Below the pieces are notes generated by a model. That model searched no databases and was not told where the DNA came from. It saw nothing but the letters and a program-made list of their open reading frames with translations. The position numbers and the translations under genes are program-made. A DNA stretch of 57,328 bases from an uncultured Gammaproteobacteria bacterium (lineage in GTDB: Bacteria; Patescibacteriota; Microgenomatia; Daviesbacterales; UBA10151), in the NCBI GenBank assembly GCA_964637465.1, contig CAZWTE010000001.1, positions 1-57,328 on the forward strand, read 5' to 3'. Below, piece after piece: positions 5,329-57,328 of this stretch. How positions within the stretch are numbered: position 1 is the stretch's first letter; the number at the start of each line of letters is the position of its first letter.

Positions 5329-6146
5329 TGAAACGGCTTGTAACATCGAATATATATTTTTTAATTGGTTTGATACTAACCTTAATCTTGCTGTGGCCGC
5401 TTTTTACCGCTCCTTATTTTACCCATCATGATGATGTGCAGGTTATCAGGGTTTATGAGATGGATAAATGTTTTAAAGACGGCCAAATCCCCTGCCGTTG
5501 GGTGCCGGACTTAGGCGGGTTATACGGATATCCAATTTTTAATTATTATGCTCCGCTGCCTTATTATTTTGGAGAATTAATCTATTTGTTAACCGGCAGC
5601 CTGTTAATATCTGCAAAAGTGATGTTTGCCTTCAGTTTTTTAGCAGCGTATGTCTTTATGTATCTTTTAGCCGCAAAACTTTGGGGTAAAATGGGTGGTG
5701 CCCTTTCCGCGATTTTTTACAGCTTCGCACCATATCATGCACTTGATTTTTATATCAGGGGAGCGATGGGAGAAATGTGGGCTTTAATGTTTTTCCCGTT
5801 AAGCTTATGGGCCGCAACTAGACTAGAAGAAAAATCCGGCATTTTAAACCTACTATTGTTTGGAGCTGCATTAGCTGCGCTTATGACATCTCATAATTTA
5901 TCTGCCGTAATCTTTCTGCCGGTTGTTTTAGTTTGGATAGTAATAATATTTTTGAAAAGAAGAAACAAACGTTTTTTGTGGTTAGGTTTAGGTTCGGCAA
6001 TAATTGGGATCATGCTGTCGGCGTTTTATGTACTGCCTGCCATGCTTGAAAAAAACTTAGTGCATCTGGAAACTATGGTAGGAGGGTATTTTTCTTACAC
6101 AGAACACTTTAAAGGGGTGAAAAAATTATTTTTGGAGAGGTCTTAG
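5328..6146 (+). CDS. N-terminal fragment (272 aa) of a PTPS_related paralogue interrupted by an in-frame TAG; probable pseudogene
   Basis: Tandem paralogue of 3676..5328 (THHDDVQVIRVYEM...GQIPCRWVPDLGGLYGYPIFNYYAPLPYY). It ends at TAG 6144-6146, where the paralogue has Trp. It shares a TAATG junction with the upstream gene. Confidence 0.75.
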   Translation: MKRLVTSNIYFLIGLILTLILLWPLFTAPYFTHHDDVQVIRVYEMDKCFKDGQIPCRWVPDLGGLYGYPIFNYYAPLPYYFGELIYLLTGSLLISAKVMFAFSFLAAYVFMYLLAAKLWGKMGGALSAIFYSFAPYHALDFYIRGAMGEMWALMFFPLSLWAATRLEEKSGILNLLLFGAALAALMTSHNLSAVIFLPVVLVWIVIIFLKRRNKRFLWLGLGSAIIGIMLSAFYVLPAMLEKNLVHLETMVGGYFSYTEHFKGVKKLFLERS

Positions 6147-7041: not shown

Positions 7042-8517
7042 ATGGATGAAAGTGTTGAGCAAATTGATCCAACTGAGGAGTTAACAACAGAAGCCATTAA
7101 GAAAAAAGCGGTTAAGGGTGCGGCGGTGCTGACAGGGAGGATGATCCTAATGCAGCCTATAAATTTTTTTTCAATGGCGCTGCTGACTGCTTTTCTGGCT
7201 CCTTCAGAGTTCGGTATCTACTTTATCGTATCAGCCGTTAAGAATTTCTTGGCTTATTTTAGCGATATTGGTTTTGCTCCGGCTTTAATCCAAAAAAAAG
7301 AGCAACTGACTGATATAGAACTGAAAACCATTTTCACGGCGCAACAAATGTTGATTTTAATAATAGTAACGATTGGTTTTATATTCTCCCCCTTTATACA
7401 AAGTATTTATCATTTAAACCAGCAGGGAATTTTTCTATTTTGGGCGCTTTTATTTTCTTTATTCTTTTCTTCGCTTAAGACCATTCCGTCAGTTTTGTTG
7501 GAAAGGAAATTGGAATTTAATAGGTGGGTAATTCCCCAGATTACTGAAACTATTATTTTTAACTCATTGGCAGTATTTTTAGCCTGGAAAGGTTTTGGGG
7601 TAACAAGTTATACGGTAGCTGTGCTTGTAGCGGGTTTTATCGGACTTATTATTATGTATTCTGTTCAACCTTGGTTGCCGGGAATTGCTTTTTCCCTCGC
7701 CGCTTTTAAATCAGTATTGAAGTTTGGTATTCCTTATCAGGCAAATACACTTCTTGCCATGGTTAAAGATGACGGGATGATCCTATTTTTGGGCAGTACT
7801 ATTGGCACTTCGGGTATTGGGTTTTTAGGATGGGCGCAAAAGTGGGCTTATGCGCCGTTACGTTTTTTTATGGATCAGGTTATAAAAGTAACGTTTCCCG
7901 CCTTCTCGAGATTACAGGATAACAGGAAAGAACTATCAGATTTAGTTTCAAAGTCAATCTTTTTTATTTGCCTTTTAGTTTTCCCTGCTTTGGTGATGTT
8001 AGTGCTGTTGTCGCCTGTTTTGGTGCAGATTATTCCTAAATATATTAAGTGGAGTCCTGCTTTATTCGCTTTATCAATTCTGGCCGTTACCTCGGCTCTG
8101 GCAGCAATTACTACCCCTTTAACTAATACTCTAAATGCGATTGGTAAAATATCCCTGACTTTTAAGTTAATGATTATGTGGACAGTTCTGACTTGGGTTT
8201 TTGTGCCGGCACTCTCTTTTTTATACGGGGTAAACGGAGCTGCCATAGGGTTTACTTTAGTCGGGTTGAGTTCGGTTGTAGCTTTATATTTAGTATCAAA
8301 GCATGTTGATATAGACTACTTACGAAGCGTAGGTAAACCACTGTTTGCCTCAGTTTTGATGGGAGTTTTGGTATTTATGACCAGAAATCTTTTTTCTGTT
8401 TCGATATTTCAAGTAATCGGTATGGTGGCGGCAGGTTTAATTTCTTATGCAGTGGTAGTTTGTATTCTTGAACCAAAATTGCCGGTTTTGATTAAAAATC
8501 AGTTTAGGAAAAGATAA
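7042..8517 (+). CDS. Wzx-type oligosaccharide/polysaccharide flippase (MOP superfamily)
   Basis: 491 aa with about 12-14 TM helices. The N-terminal pattern KGAAVLTGRMI...LLTAFLAPSEFGIYFIV...DIGFAPALIQKKE is typical of Polysacc_synt family flippases. Confidence 0.75.
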   Translation: MDESVEQIDPTEELTTEAIKKKAVKGAAVLTGRMILMQPINFFSMALLTAFLAPSEFGIYFIVSAVKNFLAYFSDIGFAPALIQKKEQLTDIELKTIFTAQQMLILIIVTIGFIFSPFIQSIYHLNQQGIFLFWALLFSLFFSSLKTIPSVLLERKLEFNRWVIPQITETIIFNSLAVFLAWKGFGVTSYTVAVLVAGFIGLIIMYSVQPWLPGIAFSLAAFKSVLKFGIPYQANTLLAMVKDDGMILFLGSTIGTSGIGFLGWAQKWAYAPLRFFMDQVIKVTFPAFSRLQDNRKELSDLVSKSIFFICLLVFPALVMLVLLSPVLVQIIPKYIKWSPALFALSILAVTSALAAITTPLTNTLNAIGKISLTFKLMIMWTVLTWVFVPALSFLYGVNGAAIGFTLVGLSSVVALYLVSKHVDIDYLRSVGKPLFASVLMGVLVFMTRNLFSVSIFQVIGMVAAGLISYAVVVCILEPKLPVLIKNQFRKR

Positions 8518-39978: not shown

Positions 39979-40956
39979 ATGAAGAAAAAAAAGAAAGTAT
40001 TGGTGACCGGAGCCGGGGGGTTCATCGGTCATCATTTAGGCACATACTTAAGGAAAAAAGGTTATTGGGTGCGTGGTATAGACATAAAGCTTCCCGAATT
40101 CAAAAAATCTGATGTTGATGAGTTTTTAAAATTAGACTTAAGAGAGAAAAAAAGTGCTTTAAAAGCCACCGAAGGAATGGATTATGTGTATGCCTTGGCA
40201 GCTGATATGGGAGGAATGGGTTTTATTTCCTCAAATCATGCCACTATTTTATACAATAATGCCACTATTAATCTTAATACAATAGAGGCGGCTAAAATAA
40301 ACAAGGTAAAGAGGTATTTTTACTCATCTTCTGCCTGTATTTATCCCCACTACCGGCAGACTAGGAGCAAACTAAAACCCTTAAAAGAGGAAGATGCATA
40401 TCCGGCACAGCCGCAGGATGCTTATGGATGGGAGAAATTAGTTTCAGAAATTCTTGCCAAGTATTACCGTGAGGAACATGGTTTAGAAACACGTATTGCC
40501 CGTTTTCATAATATTTTTGGTCCCTTTGGAACCTGGGATGGAGGAAGGGAGAAGGCACCGGCCGCCATCTGCAGAAAAGTTGCGATAGCCAAGTTAACAG
40601 GTAAAAAGGAAATAGAAATTTGGGGAGACGGAAAACAGACAAGGTCTTTTTGTTATATAGACGATTGCCTGGAAGGAATTTACAAATTAATGACGTCTGA
40701 TTTTGCCGAGCCTCTAAATATTGGTCAAGATAGGATGGTGACAATAGATCAACTGGTAGATATTATTTCTAAAGCTGCCGGTGTAAAACTTAAGAAAAAC
40801 CATATCCCCGGACCTCAAGGCGTCAGGGGCAGGAATTCCGATAACAGTAAATTGCGGCAGGTATTAAAATGGGAACCAAAGATTTCTTTGGAAGAAGGTT
40901 TGGCAAAAACATATCAATGGATCGAAGATCAGGTAAGAGCTAAACTTACTAACTAA
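39979..40956 (+). CDS. gme: GDP-mannose 3,5-epimerase-like SDR (GME family)
   Basis: 325 aa. Long collinear matches to the plant GME sequence as I remember it: TGAGGFIG, LAADMGGMGFISSNH, YNN, YSSSACIYP, PQDAYGWEKL, RFHNIFGPFGTWDGGREKAPAAICRK, WGDGKQTRSF, HIPGPQGVRGRNSDN. Confidence 0.8.
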   Translation: MKKKKKVLVTGAGGFIGHHLGTYLRKKGYWVRGIDIKLPEFKKSDVDEFLKLDLREKKSALKATEGMDYVYALAADMGGMGFISSNHATILYNNATINLNTIEAAKINKVKRYFYSSSACIYPHYRQTRSKLKPLKEEDAYPAQPQDAYGWEKLVSEILAKYYREEHGLETRIARFHNIFGPFGTWDGGREKAPAAICRKVAIAKLTGKKEIEIWGDGKQTRSFCYIDDCLEGIYKLMTSDFAEPLNIGQDRMVTIDQLVDIISKAAGVKLKKNHIPGPQGVRGRNSDNSKLRQVLKWEPKISLEEGLAKTYQWIEDQVRAKLTN

Positions 40957-41441
40957 TGCTGCTGTTTTTGTTGTATCTTATCCCAATTTTGGCAGCCGGT
41001 GTACTTATTCTACGGAAAATCAGTTCGCTAAACAGATTGGAATTACTGCTTCCTGCAGGTAGCATCTTAGGTCTTGCTTTATTTACCTTTCTTTTGAACC
41101 TGACCGCTTTTTTTATCAAGGACGGCATAGGAATCCTTATTTCTTATCTGGTGGCGCTTTTGGCGGGGTTTATATTTTTAAGATCAAAAAACAAAAAAAT
41201 ATATTTACCTGAAGGCAAAGGACTTTTTTTCTGGCCGGCGGGCATTTTTATCTGGGGAGCATTTATCTATTGGAAAGCAGCGCATGCTTTAACCGGAAGC
41301 GATGTGAACCTTTACTATGCTATTGCGCATTCTTTTGCAAAAGGGAATTTTCCACTTCTTACTCCGTGGCAACCGGATATTTCACTTTCGTATCATGTAG
41401 GAGTGTCGGAACTCTTGGGCGCATTTTACTATTTTTCCTGA
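40956..41441 (+). CDS. N-terminal fragment (161 aa) of a third HDGxWH...NYHFF-family polytopic protein; probable pseudogene
   Basis: NLYYAIAHSFAKGNFPLLTPWQPDISLSYHVGVSELLGAF aligns to the HDGxWHxAL...NP...LxNYHFFxDL region of 8517 and 14396. It ends at an in-frame TGA (41439-41441), after which frame 0 still reads family-like sequence (LDFQLLHLFFFAFVIF). Confidence 0.6.
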   Translation: MLLFLLYLIPILAAGVLILRKISSLNRLELLLPAGSILGLALFTFLLNLTAFFIKDGIGILISYLVALLAGFIFLRSKNKKIYLPEGKGLFFWPAGIFIWGAFIYWKAAHALTGSDVNLYYAIAHSFAKGNFPLLTPWQPDISLSYHVGVSELLGAFYYFS

Positions 41442-41488
41442 CTTGATTTTCAACTGCTGCATCTATTTTTTTTTGCTTTTGTTATTTT

Positions 41489-43255
41489 TTGTCCCGTTCC
41501 GATCATGTCATGATAAGTTTTCTTTTTGCTTATCTCGTGGCGGCAGTGATTTTCATTAGTTTTGGTTTTTTTTATATTTCCTGGCCTTCTTTTCCTCTTC
41601 AGTTTCCATCCGTCAGCAGTATTCAGCAATTAGTTTTGTGGCTGCGGGATTTACCTTCAGTTAATCAAGCGATTGAGGTATACGGAGCTCCAATAAATTT
41701 AGATGCATTGATTTATTTTATCTTTCAAGCATTTGGGTTGAGCATCTTTTTTTCACTTATGGTCCTAATACTTCACTATGATAAAAGAAAACCTTTAACA
41801 GGATGGATTATGCTCTGTGTTGGTTTAGCTACTGTAGCTTTGGTTAATGAATCATTGTTTGCGGCAGCTTTTCCGGCTCTTGCCGGAGGTATATTTTTGA
41901 TCGAATGGGGACGGAAGACCTTGTTTAAAAACCTAAAAATTCTGCTATTGCTTTTGATATCGACTATTTTGGTGGTACTTTTGCAAGGAGGAATGATATC
42001 TTCTTTTCTAAACTCTCCCCAGAATTTACAAAACTCAACCATAATTTTTCCCAAAAAAGAAGACATAAAAGAAGATTTTAACAGTTATCATGCTGGTCAG
42101 ATGATCTCCAAATTATTACCCGTCCAGTTAGAATGGTTGCCTCTAAGATGGTTTCATGTAGGAATAGATTCTTTATTAATATTAAGCCTGATAGCGATGT
42201 TTGCCATTAGAAGCACTCCTTATCAATTATTGCTAATAAAAATTCTATTTATTGCAGGTTTTTCTTCTCTAATAGCGTATAATGTAATAGTTCCAAAGTT
42301 TCTGGTGGCTAATGGTAACAGATTATTAGCTGCTTCATTCTTATTTTTTTCACTTCTTTTAAGCTTGTCACTAATATTCTTTTTTGAAAATATCCGACTG
42401 AAGGGGATAAAAAAGATATTATTGCTTATTTTGGTCGGATGGATTTTAATTCCGACCATCTTGCCACCTCTAACACTTCTGTCAAAAACCAGGTTCGGTG
42501 AAAATAAATTAACCCCTAAAACCCTACAAAGCAGCCAGGGCATCTTATGGTTTAAGGATAATATAAATTTTAACGAAAGAGTAATAGTGTTGGATAAAAA
42601 TGCCCCTCACCCCAGCGGCCAAGTCCGCGCTTTAGTTGAAGCAGGTGTATTTGCACCGGTATTCCCCGGAGATTTCAGGGCCTTCACAATTGAAGCATCT
42701 CCCCAATATATAGACATTGCCTATTATTTAAGCCCTCAAGCTTTGAGGAAACTGAAAATTAATTCTTTGCTCATTGATGACGTCTTTTTTGAAACTTTAC
42801 CGGATAACAGGAAACAGCAATTAGAAAATGCTGCTTATTTTGAAAAAGTTTTTGACGATTCAAAGTACAATCGCAATTGGGAGAAAATATATAAAATTAA
42901 AGATGAATATTTGAAAAACGGTGGCGAGACAGACGGAACTTTTGAACAACTTACACAAGTTATACCGGCTGAAGGAAAAGTATTTATAGATAATGAAGAA
43001 AATTTTAGGCCAAGCTTTTTAAGGAGGCCGCTGATTTTTAGTTTAAGGAACAGAGAAATCTACTATTTGCCGCAGTCAGGGGTGTATTTAAATGTGGAAG
43101 CAAATATAAATTCACATCCCCCTTTGGATAATGGCAATTATGATTATTTAGTTTTAGGCACATACACTTTGCCTTCAGAAATTTGCAAATGTCAAACCCG
43201 GCTTGTATGGAAAGGAATTAAGGGTGAGGTTTTTGTTTGGAAGAAGAACGATTAA
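41489..43255 (+). CDS. C-terminal fragment (about 581-588 aa) of the same disrupted polytopic gene
   Basis: It lies in a different frame from 40956..41441. The track start is TTG 41489 and the first ATG is at 41510. It is multi-TM, and its C-terminal soluble part (VIVLDKNAPHPSG...LRKLKINSLLIDD) resembles the tail of 14396..16390. T9 (41466-41474) and T6 (41485-41490) runs sit in the junction. Confidence 0.6.
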   Translation: MSRSDHVMISFLFAYLVAAVIFISFGFFYISWPSFPLQFPSVSSIQQLVLWLRDLPSVNQAIEVYGAPINLDALIYFIFQAFGLSIFFSLMVLILHYDKRKPLTGWIMLCVGLATVALVNESLFAAAFPALAGGIFLIEWGRKTLFKNLKILLLLLISTILVVLLQGGMISSFLNSPQNLQNSTIIFPKKEDIKEDFNSYHAGQMISKLLPVQLEWLPLRWFHVGIDSLLILSLIAMFAIRSTPYQLLLIKILFIAGFSSLIAYNVIVPKFLVANGNRLLAASFLFFSLLLSLSLIFFFENIRLKGIKKILLLILVGWILIPTILPPLTLLSKTRFGENKLTPKTLQSSQGILWFKDNINFNERVIVLDKNAPHPSGQVRALVEAGVFAPVFPGDFRAFTIEASPQYIDIAYYLSPQALRKLKINSLLIDDVFFETLPDNRKQQLENAAYFEKVFDDSKYNRNWEKIYKIKDEYLKNGGETDGTFEQLTQVIPAEGKVFIDNEENFRPSFLRRPLIFSLRNREIYYLPQSGVYLNVEANINSHPPLDNGNYDYLVLGTYTLPSEICKCQTRLVWKGIKGEVFVWKKND

Positions 43256-46362: not shown

Positions 46363-46866
46363 ATGAATAAGATGAAATTCTTTTTGAAATTGTTTTTAGC
46401 TCTGATAATATTTTCTTTAGTACAAGCAGGATTAATTTATGCTCAGGAGTCAGTACAATTAGAATTGCCAAAAACCACGGTAAATCCCGGATCGTTTTAT
46501 TATCCTTTTAAAAGATTGATAGAAAAAGGCAGGGAAAGAGTAATTTTTTCTCAAGAGGAAAAGATATCTTTTTATAAATCTCTGCTTAAAATCAGGCTCT
46601 CGGAATTAAATTATGTGATTAGTAAAAAATTCTTGTCAGAAATCCAGGGCAGCAGTGAAAGATTTGCTTATACTGCGGGAATTTTGGCTGAAGAAGTAAA
46701 AGTACAGGATAAGGTAGAGGAGAAGCAGTATCACATTAGGCAATTTGGGTTGTATAGTAAATTTTTGGATTCTCTAAGAGATCAATACCCAGCCAATTCC
46801 AGTTTTTGGATGTTAATTCAGCATGATATAAATACCTTAAGTATTTTATCAGAACAATTGAAATAA
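46363..46866 (+). CDS. Small secreted helical protein, DUF5667-like (hypothetical)
   Basis: The ORF-track start at 46336 overlaps the upstream gene. ATG 46363 gives MNKMKFFLKLFLALIIFSLVQAGLIYA, a signal peptide. VNPGSFYYPFKRLIEKGRERV...LKIRLSEL resembles the PGS.FY.LKR..E motif of DUF5667 proteins. Confidence 0.45.
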   Translation: MNKMKFFLKLFLALIIFSLVQAGLIYAQESVQLELPKTTVNPGSFYYPFKRLIEKGRERVIFSQEEKISFYKSLLKIRLSELNYVISKKFLSEIQGSSERFAYTAGILAEEVKVQDKVEEKQYHIRQFGLYSKFLDSLRDQYPANSSFWMLIQHDINTLSILSEQLK

Positions 46867-46888
46867 TGCTTTCTGTCATAAGTAGTAT

Positions 46889-48133
46889 ATGCTAGTAAAT
46901 CAAAAGGAAGTTTTCCAGCTAGAAGTTTGCAGGGCATGTGATAGCAGCAATCTTTTATTATTTCTTCAGCTTGGTCCTACCCCTGTCCCAAATGGTTTTT
47001 TAAAAGTCCATCGTCATAGAGCAGAGAAGTTTTATCCTTTGGATGTTTGTTTTTTTTTTTTTTTTGGGCTAGTGCAGCTTGCTCATGTGGTATCTCCAAA
47101 AGTGATGTTTAAAAATTATGTATATATCCCTTCTACATCGGAAACTATGAGAGCACATTTTGCTGCTTTGGCAAAAAAGGCTGTCAAAAAGTCCGGAGCA
47201 CAGAAAGAAGATTTGGTGGTGGATATTGGCAGTAATGATGGGACCCTCCTTAAGGCATTTCAAACTTTGGGGGTAAGAACAATCGGTATTGACCCTGCTG
47301 AAAATCTGGCTAGGAAAGCCAACCAGGAAGGAATAAAAACAATATGTGATTTATTTACTCTGAAATTGGCTAAGCAGATTAAGAAAACAGAAGGGAAAGC
47401 TAAAATTATTACGGGAACAAATGTTGTCGCTCATGTGCATGATCTGCATAATTTTTTCGAAGGTATTAAAGTTTTACTATCTGAAGATGGATTGTTTATC
47501 TGCGAATTTCCGTATTTAGTTAATTTAATTGAAAAAATTGAGTTTGACACTATTTATCAGGAACATCTTTCTTACTTTTCGATTACCCCATTTGATAGGC
47601 TTCTAAAAAGGCATAATCTTTGTTTAACAGATATTCAAAGAATACCAGTTCATGGCGGTTCTGTAAGAGTGTTTGTGAGCAAAAAACCAATCAAGCAGGA
47701 TAAAGAAATTAAACGATTGCTTGAGGTTGAAAAAAAGAAAGGGATATTAAATGCGGAGACTTATCTAAAATTCAGAAGAAAAGTAGACAAAGTGAGACAT
47801 GAATTAGTTCAGCTGTTATGGGACTTACGCCTGAAAAAGAAAAAAATTGTGGGATATGGGGCATCCGCGAAAGGAAATATTATCTTAAATTACTGCAGGA
47901 TTGGACCTGAAACGCTTGATTACATTGTTGACTCAATTCCCTATAAGCAGGGAAAATATACACCGGGGATGCATATCTTAATATATCCCGAGGAGAAACT
48001 CTTAGAAGACCAACCTGATTATACGCTGCTTCTGGCTTGGAATTTTGCCGATGAGATCATAAAAAAACAGAAAGAGTATAGCAAGAGGGGAGGGAAATTT
48101 ATTCTGGTTCTCCCGAAGCTTACAGTTGTTTAG
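46889..48133 (+). CDS. NDP-sugar C-methyltransferase (Methyltransf_13 / SAM MTase / Methyltransf_14 architecture, TylCIII-like)
   Basis: 414 aa. The N-terminus has CRACDSS..LGPTPVPNGFL and YPLDVC....GLVQL. The SAM motif is VVDIGSNDGTLL. The C-terminal region is GYGASAKGNIILNYC...YIVDSIPYKQGKYTPG...LLLAWNFADEI...GGKFI. Confidence 0.8.
   Translation: MLVNQKEVFQLEVCRACDSSNLLLFLQLGPTPVPNGFLKVHRHRAEKFYPLDVCFFFFFGLVQLAHVVSPKVMFKNYVYIPSTSETMRAHFAALAKKAVKKSGAQKEDLVVDIGSNDGTLLKAFQTLGVRTIGIDPAENLARKANQEGIKTICDLFTLKLAKQIKKTEGKAKIITGTNVVAHVHDLHNFFEGIKVLLSEDGLFICEFPYLVNLIEKIEFDTIYQEHLSYFSITPFDRLLKRHNLCLTDIQRIPVHGGSVRVFVSKKPIKQDKEIKRLLEVEKKKGILNAETYLKFRRKVDKVRHELVQLLWDLRLKKKKIVGYGASAKGNIILNYCRIGPETLDYIVDSIPYKQGKYTPGMHILIYPEEKLLEDQPDYTLLLAWNFADEIIKKQKEYSKRGGKFILVLPKLTVV
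47050..47065 (+). repeat. Poly-T homopolymer (16 nt) inside the C-methyltransferase CDS
   Basis: Read directly as tgt tttttttttttttttt ggg, encoding C-FFFFF-G at the position where the family normally has CxxCG. Confidence 0.95.
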
Positions 48134-49001
48134 CCAAATCATCGATTATTTCTTCCCAAGTCATAAATTTTAATCCAAGCGCATCCTCTGTCTTTTTCAC
48201 TTTCAGGCCACCATGTTGTGGGTATCTTAAAGGATTATTTTTGAGAAAGTGTTCAATAGTGGCTGGCTGGACAGCATTTTTTGCTCCACGCACCTTTTCG
48301 ATTAAATAAGTAACTAGCTTAAAGGGGGTAAAAACGTTGCTGCTTGAGGTATGGAAAATGCCGGTCTGTCTTTTTTCAAGAAGAATTTGCAAAACCTTTG
48401 TAACTTCATTTATGTATGTGAGTGTTAAATATTGATCGGAAAACATCGGGTAAAGCTTATCTTCATCATAAAGCTTTAAGACTTGGCGCACATAATCTGT
48501 TTTTTGTTCGAAGACGGCTCTGACAGGATTGGAGATGCGCAAAATAGCGTAATTTTCCATATTATCAGCAACTACTTTTTCTGCCTCTCTTTTGGTCCAA
48601 CCATACCATGATAAAAGATTCGGATTATTTGCAGGTGGATGGTTTTCGGGATAAGGGCCAGGATCTTCTTTGCTGCCCTGGAAAATTACGTCAGTAGAAA
48701 TATGAATAAAATAGTTTTTCGGATTTACAGCGTGAACTAAATTATAAGTTCCATCAACATTAATAATCCAACAGGGAGCTTTTTTATTATCCCTTTGTTC
48801 TTCGGCTAGGGAAACATCAGTAAATGCTGCAAAATGTATGACAGCATCCGATTGATGTGAACCAAAGAACTCTCCTACAGATTTTTTATTTGTAATATCA
48901 AGTTCCTCTAAGGAAGGTGATAAGATATTCTCCTTCGGATTATAGTTTTGAGTAAAGTGAGATCCGACTAAACCATTAGCGCCGGTAACAAGTAATTTCA
49001 T
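48120..49001 (-). CDS. RmlD-like NDP-4-keto-sugar reductase (dTDP-4-dehydrorhamnose reductase family SDR)
   Basis: 293 aa. Carries MKLLVTGANGLVGSHF, HFAAFTDV, ISTDVIF, and YGWTKREAE (YxxxK). It shares an ATGA overlap (minus strand) with the upstream GT2 gene. Its 3' end overlaps the convergent methyltransferase gene by 14 nt. Confidence 0.7.
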   Translation of the reverse strand: MKLLVTGANGLVGSHFTQNYNPKENILSPSLEELDITNKKSVGEFFGSHQSDAVIHFAAFTDVSLAEEQRDNKKAPCWIINVDGTYNLVHAVNPKNYFIHISTDVIFQGSKEDPGPYPENHPPANNPNLLSWYGWTKREAEKVVADNMENYAILRISNPVRAVFEQKTDYVRQVLKLYDEDKLYPMFSDQYLTLTYINEVTKVLQILLEKRQTGIFHTSSSNVFTPFKLVTYLIEKVRGAKNAVQPATIEHFLKNNPLRYPQHGGLKVKKTEDALGLKFMTWEEIIDDLAKQL

Positions 49002-55658: not shown

Positions 55659-57328
55659 TTAAGGGTTAGACAAGAGCTCCCGCAGTTTTTGCCTGGCAGC
55701 ATCAGTGATATTTACTAAGTTATCTTTCCCAATAAGTTGGAAGGCATATATTCTTTCGATACCGATTGGTTTATCTTTACCAATGGATTTTCCGTCTGTA
55801 ACTGCCGATAAAACCTCTTTCCAGTCGCTCATTGGTTGCGGAATCTTTTCTTCCCCGGGGATTTTATAGAGAATGGCCATATGGGGAGGGAAACCGAATG
55901 TGACTGAATCGCGCAAAATCGTTTCATTTGTGCCGTCACCCTGAAAATAAAAAATCATTGGTTCTGAATTTTTGCCAACTTCCGGAATATTTGGCATCTG
56001 GGACCAGATTTTATTTACTGTTTCTTTGTTGCGGGTTATATATTCTCCCGCCAGGAAATTTTTTGTAATTAGGGCATGACTGATTTGCAAAATTCCCGCA
56101 ACAAATAAAAAGATGAGTATACTTTTTTGATTTTTGCCAAGACTGATGATTTTTGCAAGTAGCAGCGAGATGCCGACAGCGGAGATTATCAAATAACGAT
56201 GAGTTGTTGGGAATATGGCCGAGGTGTTTGTTTGCCACCAGGGGTAAAGATTTGAAATTATTGTCCAGCCCAAAGCGATAATCAAACCAGCCTTAATCAG
56301 GTAATCTGTTTTAAGGTATAAAAACAGGTTAAAAACCAGGATTATTGAGTAACCGCCTACCAGCAGAGAAGATGCATTGTTGGCATTGGCGAGAACTTCA
56401 GGATTTAATTTAAGAGCGGTTAAGACTATAATCGACCAGATTGTCCCCACAAAGGTTCCGGTCCGGAGAAATTTGAAATTTAGATTGCCGATATGATGTT
56501 TTAAAATAATTAAGAGGATGAGATAAACGAGAAAAAAGGGTAAGAAAATATTAAAAAGATATTGACTCAAACTGACTATGCGTAAACCTTGTGGCAGGAA
56601 AAAATCCGGTATGACGATATTGCCTAATGTAGCCACAGGATAAAGTAAAAAATCGAAATTACCCTGGGAAAGGAGTTGAAACTTGTATTTTAGGCCGATT
56701 ACAAAACCGACGGTAGGGCTTCCACTGATAGTTTCTTTAAAACCGAGCAGGTAAATTACAAAATAAATAACAAAAAAACCCAAAATTTTTAAGCCTGATT
56801 CGGTAAAGTTCAGTTTTTTCTTAACAGCCATCAGTATTTCTAAAAAAATCAGAAAAGGAATAAGGCCATGAGCCCTGATAGGTGTTGCTAAAAAAGTTAA
56901 ACCAAAGAAAAAATAAATTAGCAAAAGGGTTTTAATATTGCTGTTTTGATAATACTTTAAGGAAAAAAACAGCAGGAAACTGAAAAAGGTAATTGCAAGG
57001 TAGGATGGCATGTTAAACACCCAGCTGCTGGCGCCCAGTCCTACCGGGGAGAATAAGAAGAAGAAAACAGCAAACCAAGAAGTAAGTTTTTGTTTAGTTA
57101 AAAGAAAAGCCGGGAAGTAGAGGGAGAAAGCAGCGATTACTCTTAGGGTATAAGAAAGGAGAAAGTAAATATTAGATTCGCTCCCAAAAGATTTATAGAG
57201 GAAAGCCATTATAGCGTCTTGGGAACCATAAGCATTAAGGAGGTATTTAAAATTATTAAAATATTCTGTTGAGTAAAGCCCCAGATGCTTTGGTTCGTCT
57301 AAATAATAGGAGTATCTAAATATGGCCA
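55659..57328 (-). CDS. Polytopic membrane protein, same family; copy 4, with its 5' end beyond the window edge
   Basis: The frame stays open upstream of the ATG at 57209 to the window end (..AIFRYSYYLDEPKHLGLYSTEYFNNFKYLLNAYGSQDAIMAFLYKSFG). That stretch aligns to FFRYFQHLGP...TPYGAQDILMGLVQKIFG of copy 3. It also carries IRAHGLIPFLIFLE, FPTTHRYLIISAVGI, and RIYAFQLIGKDNLVNITD. Confidence 0.65.
   Translation of the reverse strand, partial: AIFRYSYYLDEPKHLGLYSTEYFNNFKYLLNAYGSQDAIMAFLYKSFGSESNIYFLLSYTLRVIAAFSLYFPAFLLTKQKLTSWFAVFFFLFSPVGLGASSWVFNMPSYLAITFFSFLLFFSLKYYQNSNIKTLLLIYFFFGLTFLATPIRAHGLIPFLIFLEILMAVKKKLNFTESGLKILGFFVIYFVIYLLGFKETISGSPTVGFVIGLKYKFQLLSQGNFDFLLYPVATLGNIVIPDFFLPQGLRIVSLSQYLFNIFLPFFLVYLILLIILKHHIGNLNFKFLRTGTFVGTIWSIIVLTALKLNPEVLANANNASSLLVGGYSIILVFNLFLYLKTDYLIKAGLIIALGWTIISNLYPWWQTNTSAIFPTTHRYLIISAVGISLLLAKIISLGKNQKSILIFLFVAGILQISHALITKNFLAGEYITRNKETVNKIWSQMPNIPEVGKNSEPMIFYFQGDGTNETILRDSVTFGFPPHMAILYKIPGEEKIPQPMSDWKEVLSAVTDGKSIGKDKPIGIERIYAFQLIGKDNLVNITDAARQKLRELLSNP

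Follow-up and report, generated by a model that had tools for sequence, protein, structure and literature searches.

The closest described relatives of the enzyme discussed here are TcaB9 (3NDI), the MtmC-type D-mycarose 3-C-methyltransferase (4RV9), and TylC3, with all of which it shares the same three-domain architecture. In TcaB9, zinc is bound by four cysteines. The motifs that carry these cysteines, CRxC and, further on, CxxC-G-[LM]-VQL, align with those of the enzyme in the version read from independent contigs. The protein as it was deposited differs from these relatives in having neither cysteine of the second CxxC, and in coming from a bacterium of the candidate phyla radiation (CPR).

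What replaces the second motif is a long run of T, and this brings in a second kind of described system. Contingency loci are well known as poly-G tracts in the capsule and LOS modification genes of Campylobacter jejuni, and from the surface-glycan genes of Neisseria and Haemophilus. In such loci, the tract varies in length between reads or strains, is kept as a tract in relatives, and lies in a segment of the protein that tolerates repeats. The gene considered here resembles them in having a long mononucleotide run in the 5' part of a gene for a glycan-modifying enzyme, where a change of 1 nt truncates the product. It is unlike them in that its run of 16 T's (T16) shows neither length variation nor a tract in relatives, and in that it overwrites invariant metal ligands.

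A third comparison is with homopolymer junk and other local errors in MAGs. Reports of such junk usually concern poly-G produced by two-colour chemistry or, in Nanopore assemblies, long blocks. Like such errors, T16 preserves the reading frame, replaces conserved coding sequence, is not reproduced elsewhere, and has a second local error for company in its contig. Unlike the usual junk, it is very short (8 bases overwritten), stands in register, and is found in what is apparently a short-read assembly.

The gene lies in a contig of which 57,328 bases, here called the window, were analyzed (Table 1). The deposited protein matches three Pfam families: Methyltransf_13 (PF08421, "putative zinc binding domain"; 1.2e-12; at 48 bits, above the cutoff of 31), Methyltransf_23 (PF13489, a class I SAM methyltransferase domain; 3e-16) and, at its C-terminus, Methyltransf_14 (PF08484; 4e-57). 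The closest solved structures align over the full length; these are 4rv9, a D-mycarose 3-C-methyltransferase (1e-99), and 3ndi, TcaB9 (2e-84), whose N-terminal CRxC and later CxxC fall on the motifs of the query. The central SAM-dependent Rossmann domain and the C-terminal Methyltransf_14 domain are both present, as the C-methyltransferase family requires. As for the cysteines of the zinc domain, the deposited protein has those of the first CxxC only, and the protein from an independent contig has all four. In its independently assembled form, the gene is an ordinary putative NDP-sugar C-methyltransferase of the TcaB9/TylC3/MtmC family.

Neighboring genes encode a nucleotide-sugar dehydrogenase, an SDR epimerase, an RmlD-like reductase, a GT2 glycosyltransferase, and large membrane proteins resembling glycosyltransferases. 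The neighborhood is, as judged from these predicted products, a surface-glycan island. The closest homologues of the methyltransferase (54-83% identity) come from groundwater metagenomes and, where they are named, from Candidatus Daviesbacteria. The source genome is that of a Daviesbacteria-like CPR bacterium from groundwater.

Table 1. Positions, in window coordinates, of the methyltransferase gene and of the features within it.
Feature	Position	Strand	Remarks
NDP-hexose C-methyltransferase gene	46889..48133	+	414 aa as deposited; 415 aa in independent contig; relatives in Pfam and PDB
First zinc motif, CRAC (Cys14, Cys17), intact	46928..46939	+	CR[AIVS]C in 117/121 family members
Site of missing CAT (His)	47008..47009	+	contigs gtc CAT cat cgt cat; window has one CAT fewer
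T16 tract	47050..47065	+	last base of Cys54 and five Phe, in place of F-C-K-D-C (second CxxC)
Probable overwrite, 8 positions (47055-47061 and 47064)	47055..47064	+	window T; four runs G C A A A G A and G

An earlier sequence-only reading of the window had reported a 16-nt poly-T inside a sugar C-methyltransferase, and the tract is indeed present in the deposited contig. From 47042 to 47068, this reads gat gtt tgT TTT TTT TTT TTT TTT ggg, followed by cta gtg cag; the run is exactly 16 nt long. Its first T completes the codon of Cys54, and the other 15 T's make five Phe codons, giving YPLDVC-FFFFF-GLVQL within the 414-aa reading frame. No other homopolymer in the window (GC 36.7%) exceeds 9 nt, and base composition leads one to expect about 0.001 T runs of 16 nt or more.

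That reading proposed a slipped-strand phase switch. On this view, T16 would be a contingency tract, and changes of 1 nt in its length would turn the C-methyltransferase, and with it a modification of the surface glycan, on and off. A real 16-nt mononucleotide run would, of course, be prone to slippage, and the gene does lie within the glycan island. Further, the claim that a gain or loss of 1 nt truncates the enzyme after about 60 residues is borne out by computation; with one T fewer (T15) the product ends at 60 residues, and with one T more (T17) at 74.

The family, however, speaks against such a switch. An alignment was made of 121 sequences, these being the window protein and 120 homologues (54-83% identity). 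All 120 homologues have C-x-x-C at the site of the tract with the same spacing (most commonly CKDC, CKSC, or CQDC), and a run of four or more Phe is found there in none of the 120. Nor is there a repeat tract of any kind at this site among the orthologues compared. The sequence-only reading was therefore right to say that the tract takes the place of the family's second CxxC; both conserved cysteines are gone from the window protein. The cysteine that survives in DVC lies in a variable column (C, S, A, Y, H, G, or L), and is for this reason not the ligand. An invariant poly-Phe segment in the orthologues, which the same reading had held out as another outcome of such a comparison, occurs in none of them. 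Its statement that the tract had added two residues was mistaken; the segment has the length of the F-C-x-x-C of the 120 homologues, with nothing added.

This, in turn, bears on what the switch would be switching. Its in-frame "on" state would be an enzyme lacking two zinc ligands out of the four that never vary among 120 homologues, and this enzyme would probably be non-functional. Moreover, orthologues have no tract here that might have been maintained, and the 57 kb of glycan genes around T16 offer no second homopolymer longer than 9 nt.

The alignment also shows a second anomaly. The spacing between NGF and YPL is 18 residues in all 120 homologues and 17 in the window protein. Since all 120 have the extra residue, the loss of a CAT codon (Table 1) is as unique to the window as is the tract itself.

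Independent assemblies give a direct view of the site. The material for comparison consisted of Logan contigs from four groundwater metagenome runs of one study, at depths of 3-14. Logan contigs are assembled sequence from which rare variants are dropped, and the comparison is therefore made at the level of contigs, not of raw reads. It covered 46700-47400 (701 bases), with short cross-matching pieces of other organisms set aside. Over this range, the contigs are identical to the window except for 8 substitutions and one indel of CAT. The substitutions are those listed in Table 1, with the same eight bases in all four runs. The additional CAT follows 47008, 47 nt upstream of these substitutions, in three runs; in the fourth, this site is not covered. 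At 47050-47065, the contigs read TTTTTGCAAAGATTGT, which encodes F-C-K-D-C. The tract is thus an overwrite of F-C-K-D-C without any change of length.

A longer view is given by one contig of 2,479 bp (L001, run SRR12113385), which by direct alignment reads GGATGTTTG-TTTTTGCAAAGATTGT-GGGCTAGTG. Over 2,476 bases, only 14 positions distinguish it from the window. Its 415-aa protein (P0121) is the window protein with FCKDC for FFFFF and one His more. The rest of the gene, about 1.2 kb, is otherwise identical and shows no further decay.

Outside these four runs, a contig from another groundwater study of 2024 (run X5), ending at window position 47078, belongs to a related organism and carries TGTTTCTGTAAGGATTGCGGTTTGGTACAA. 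This encodes C-F-C-K-D-C-G-L-V-Q, and gives further independent support for the intact motif.

The deposited version was also sought in its own right. No indexed run holds the 31-mers that span T16 in the context of this gene (query 47022-47093); those holding poly-T 31-mers do so in unrelated poly-T or poly-A contigs. A pattern that joined the two flanks by any 8 to 30 bases, and so admitted a tract of any length, found 0 matches in the genome and metagenome contig collections. One groundwater study (He et al., 2021; PMC7906910) used MEGAHIT for assembly and IDBA-UD for scaffolding; run numbers are not listed there.

These results leave little of the switch. At the contig level, no variant in tract length is seen in any indexed run or contig collection, and the sole alternative allele is equal in length and non-repetitive, separated from T16 by 8 substitutions rather than by an indel. 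When the locus is held against the usual marks of a contingency locus, a long tract inside an open reading frame is what is found; length polymorphism, conservation of the tract, and (as predicted from the lost ligands) a functional "on" state are not. It is thus very unlikely that T16 is a slipped-strand switch; an equal-length allele, the want of length variants, and the want of a tract in orthologues all tell against that proposal. The sequence-only reading had itself said that a fixed short tract encoding CxxC would mean an artefact, and at the contig level precisely this is found in the independent contigs of four runs.

A different defense of the tract gives up regulation and keeps the DNA. 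In this account, T16 is a real allele, private to the source population, that destroyed two zinc ligands. The gene would be decaying, its methyltransferase crippled or inactive, and the tract would have no part in regulation. In favor of this, the contig has other alleles that are absent from the indexed runs (at 48482-95, at 41439-41538, and as isolated SNPs), and its source population is not identical to that of the four runs. Further, the frame is intact, and De Bruijn assemblers normally require read support for every k-mer. Some reads carrying T16 therefore probably existed, a point that counts, of course, against an artefact.

The difficulty lies in finding a process that could have made such an allele. 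Slippage alters the length of a tract, and does not produce an overwrite that leaves length unchanged. Expansion of a T5 with a compensating deletion would need a gain of 11 nt and the loss of exactly the 11 nt that follow. Diversity-generating retroelements change adenines only, and the bases changed in the intact allele (G, C, A, A, A, G, A, G) are not only adenines. A switch of template would need a second long T or A tract to copy from, and the window has none above 9 nt. There is no known mutational process by which 8 of 10 bases become T at constant length. To this may be added that the site is strongly conserved, in 120 of 120 family members, and that the remaining ~1.2 kb of the gene has none of the further decay that a dying gene might show. 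A real private lesion is accordingly judged improbable, though distinctly less so than a switch.

The background rate of divergence makes the same point in numbers. Over window positions 1-40000, the four runs depart from the deposited contig at only about 12 isolated SNPs, mostly transitions, and the population is nearly clonal across samples. Four of these SNPs recur, those at 7275 and 12810 in every run and those at 6145 and 15921 in three of them. Against a background of ~12 SNPs in 40 kb, 8 differences in 10 nt that all lead to T cannot be independent mutations; the probability of such a cluster is of the order of 1e-20.

The methyltransferase is not the only place where the deposited contig departs from the others. 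At 41439-41538, 11 substitutions and a 25-nt deletion set it apart from contigs of three runs. The cluster splits a gene for a membrane glycosyltransferase-like protein into two reading frames, 40956..41441 and 41489..43255 (161 aa and 588 aa), in a gene that is uninterrupted in the contigs of the three runs (in L002, as an open reading frame of at least 508 aa). The break is probably an assembly error or a private lesion, as far as the comparison of contigs can say. The window's own version of this region (41425-41550), like its version of 48455-48525, is absent from every indexed run.

A third cluster, at 48482-48495, consists of three differences (C/T, G/T, and A/G) from all four runs, and falls in the RmlD-like reductase gene (48120..49001, minus strand). 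Its effects are Q173K, V174I, and one synonymous change; it has the look of benign variation between strains.

Of the three private clusters, two destroy strongly conserved features, while the isolated SNPs resemble ordinary strain variation. This pattern fits local errors of assembly or consensus.

The isolated SNPs and the cluster at 48482-95 carry a different message. Because they differ from the four runs, the deposited contig probably comes, by this sequence evidence, from a sample or genotype outside those runs. Toward the end of the window, at 56019-56244, polymorphism is dense and the runs disagree with one another (X2 agrees with the window at 56211-56244; X1, X3, and X4 do not). Such disagreement means that the aquifer harbors several genotypes.

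On balance, it is probable that T16 is a local assembly or consensus artefact of the deposited metagenome contig, and not part of the organism's DNA. This was the fallback of the sequence-only reading, which had allowed for an assembly or sequencing artefact, and the intact allele of equal length in four runs now favors it. A technical origin is what one would infer from the equal length of the two versions, from the failure of independent assemblies of the same population to reproduce T16 (it is absent from all four runs), and from its uniqueness among the 121 family members, each of these being an observation. That the frame is kept across the tract would also be expected of a real allele under some selection.

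If T16 is an artefact, then TTTTTGCAAAGATTGT, the reading of the contigs, is the most likely true sequence at 47050-47065. With it, the N-terminal zinc domain would regain its second Cys-x-x-Cys and so its full four cysteines. Eight bases within a span of 10 nt would have been overwritten by T, in register, and the CAT codon 47 nt upstream would have been lost along with them. The two defects would lie inside one read length (56 nt). The cause may have been a burst of miscalled cycles in low-coverage reads, shared by duplicate reads; alternatively, it may have been a local error made when contigs were joined or a gap was closed.

A homopolymer switch would be the more arresting outcome. Were T16 to belong to a minor or sample-specific genotype and to slip in length there, it would be the first homopolymer contingency switch described in a surface-glycan gene of the Patescibacteria, and unusual in its origin, having overwritten a zinc knuckle. 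The likelihood of this is very small. As the first such locus in a CPR bacterium, a real tract would be of interest; the evidence, however, speaks against one.

The chief value of the artefact explanation is as a quality flag for the deposited record. In the deposited protein (414 aa, with FFFFF), 4 residues are probably wrong and one His is missing, and a second gene in the same contig appears to be falsely broken. Surveys of motifs, pseudogenes, or phase variation in CPR genomes would be misled if they used this record as it stands. For the organism itself, the conclusion is plainer. Because the true sequence is likely to be TTTTTGCAAAGATTGT, the gene would encode an ordinary, constitutively intact glycan-tailoring enzyme, with no switch.
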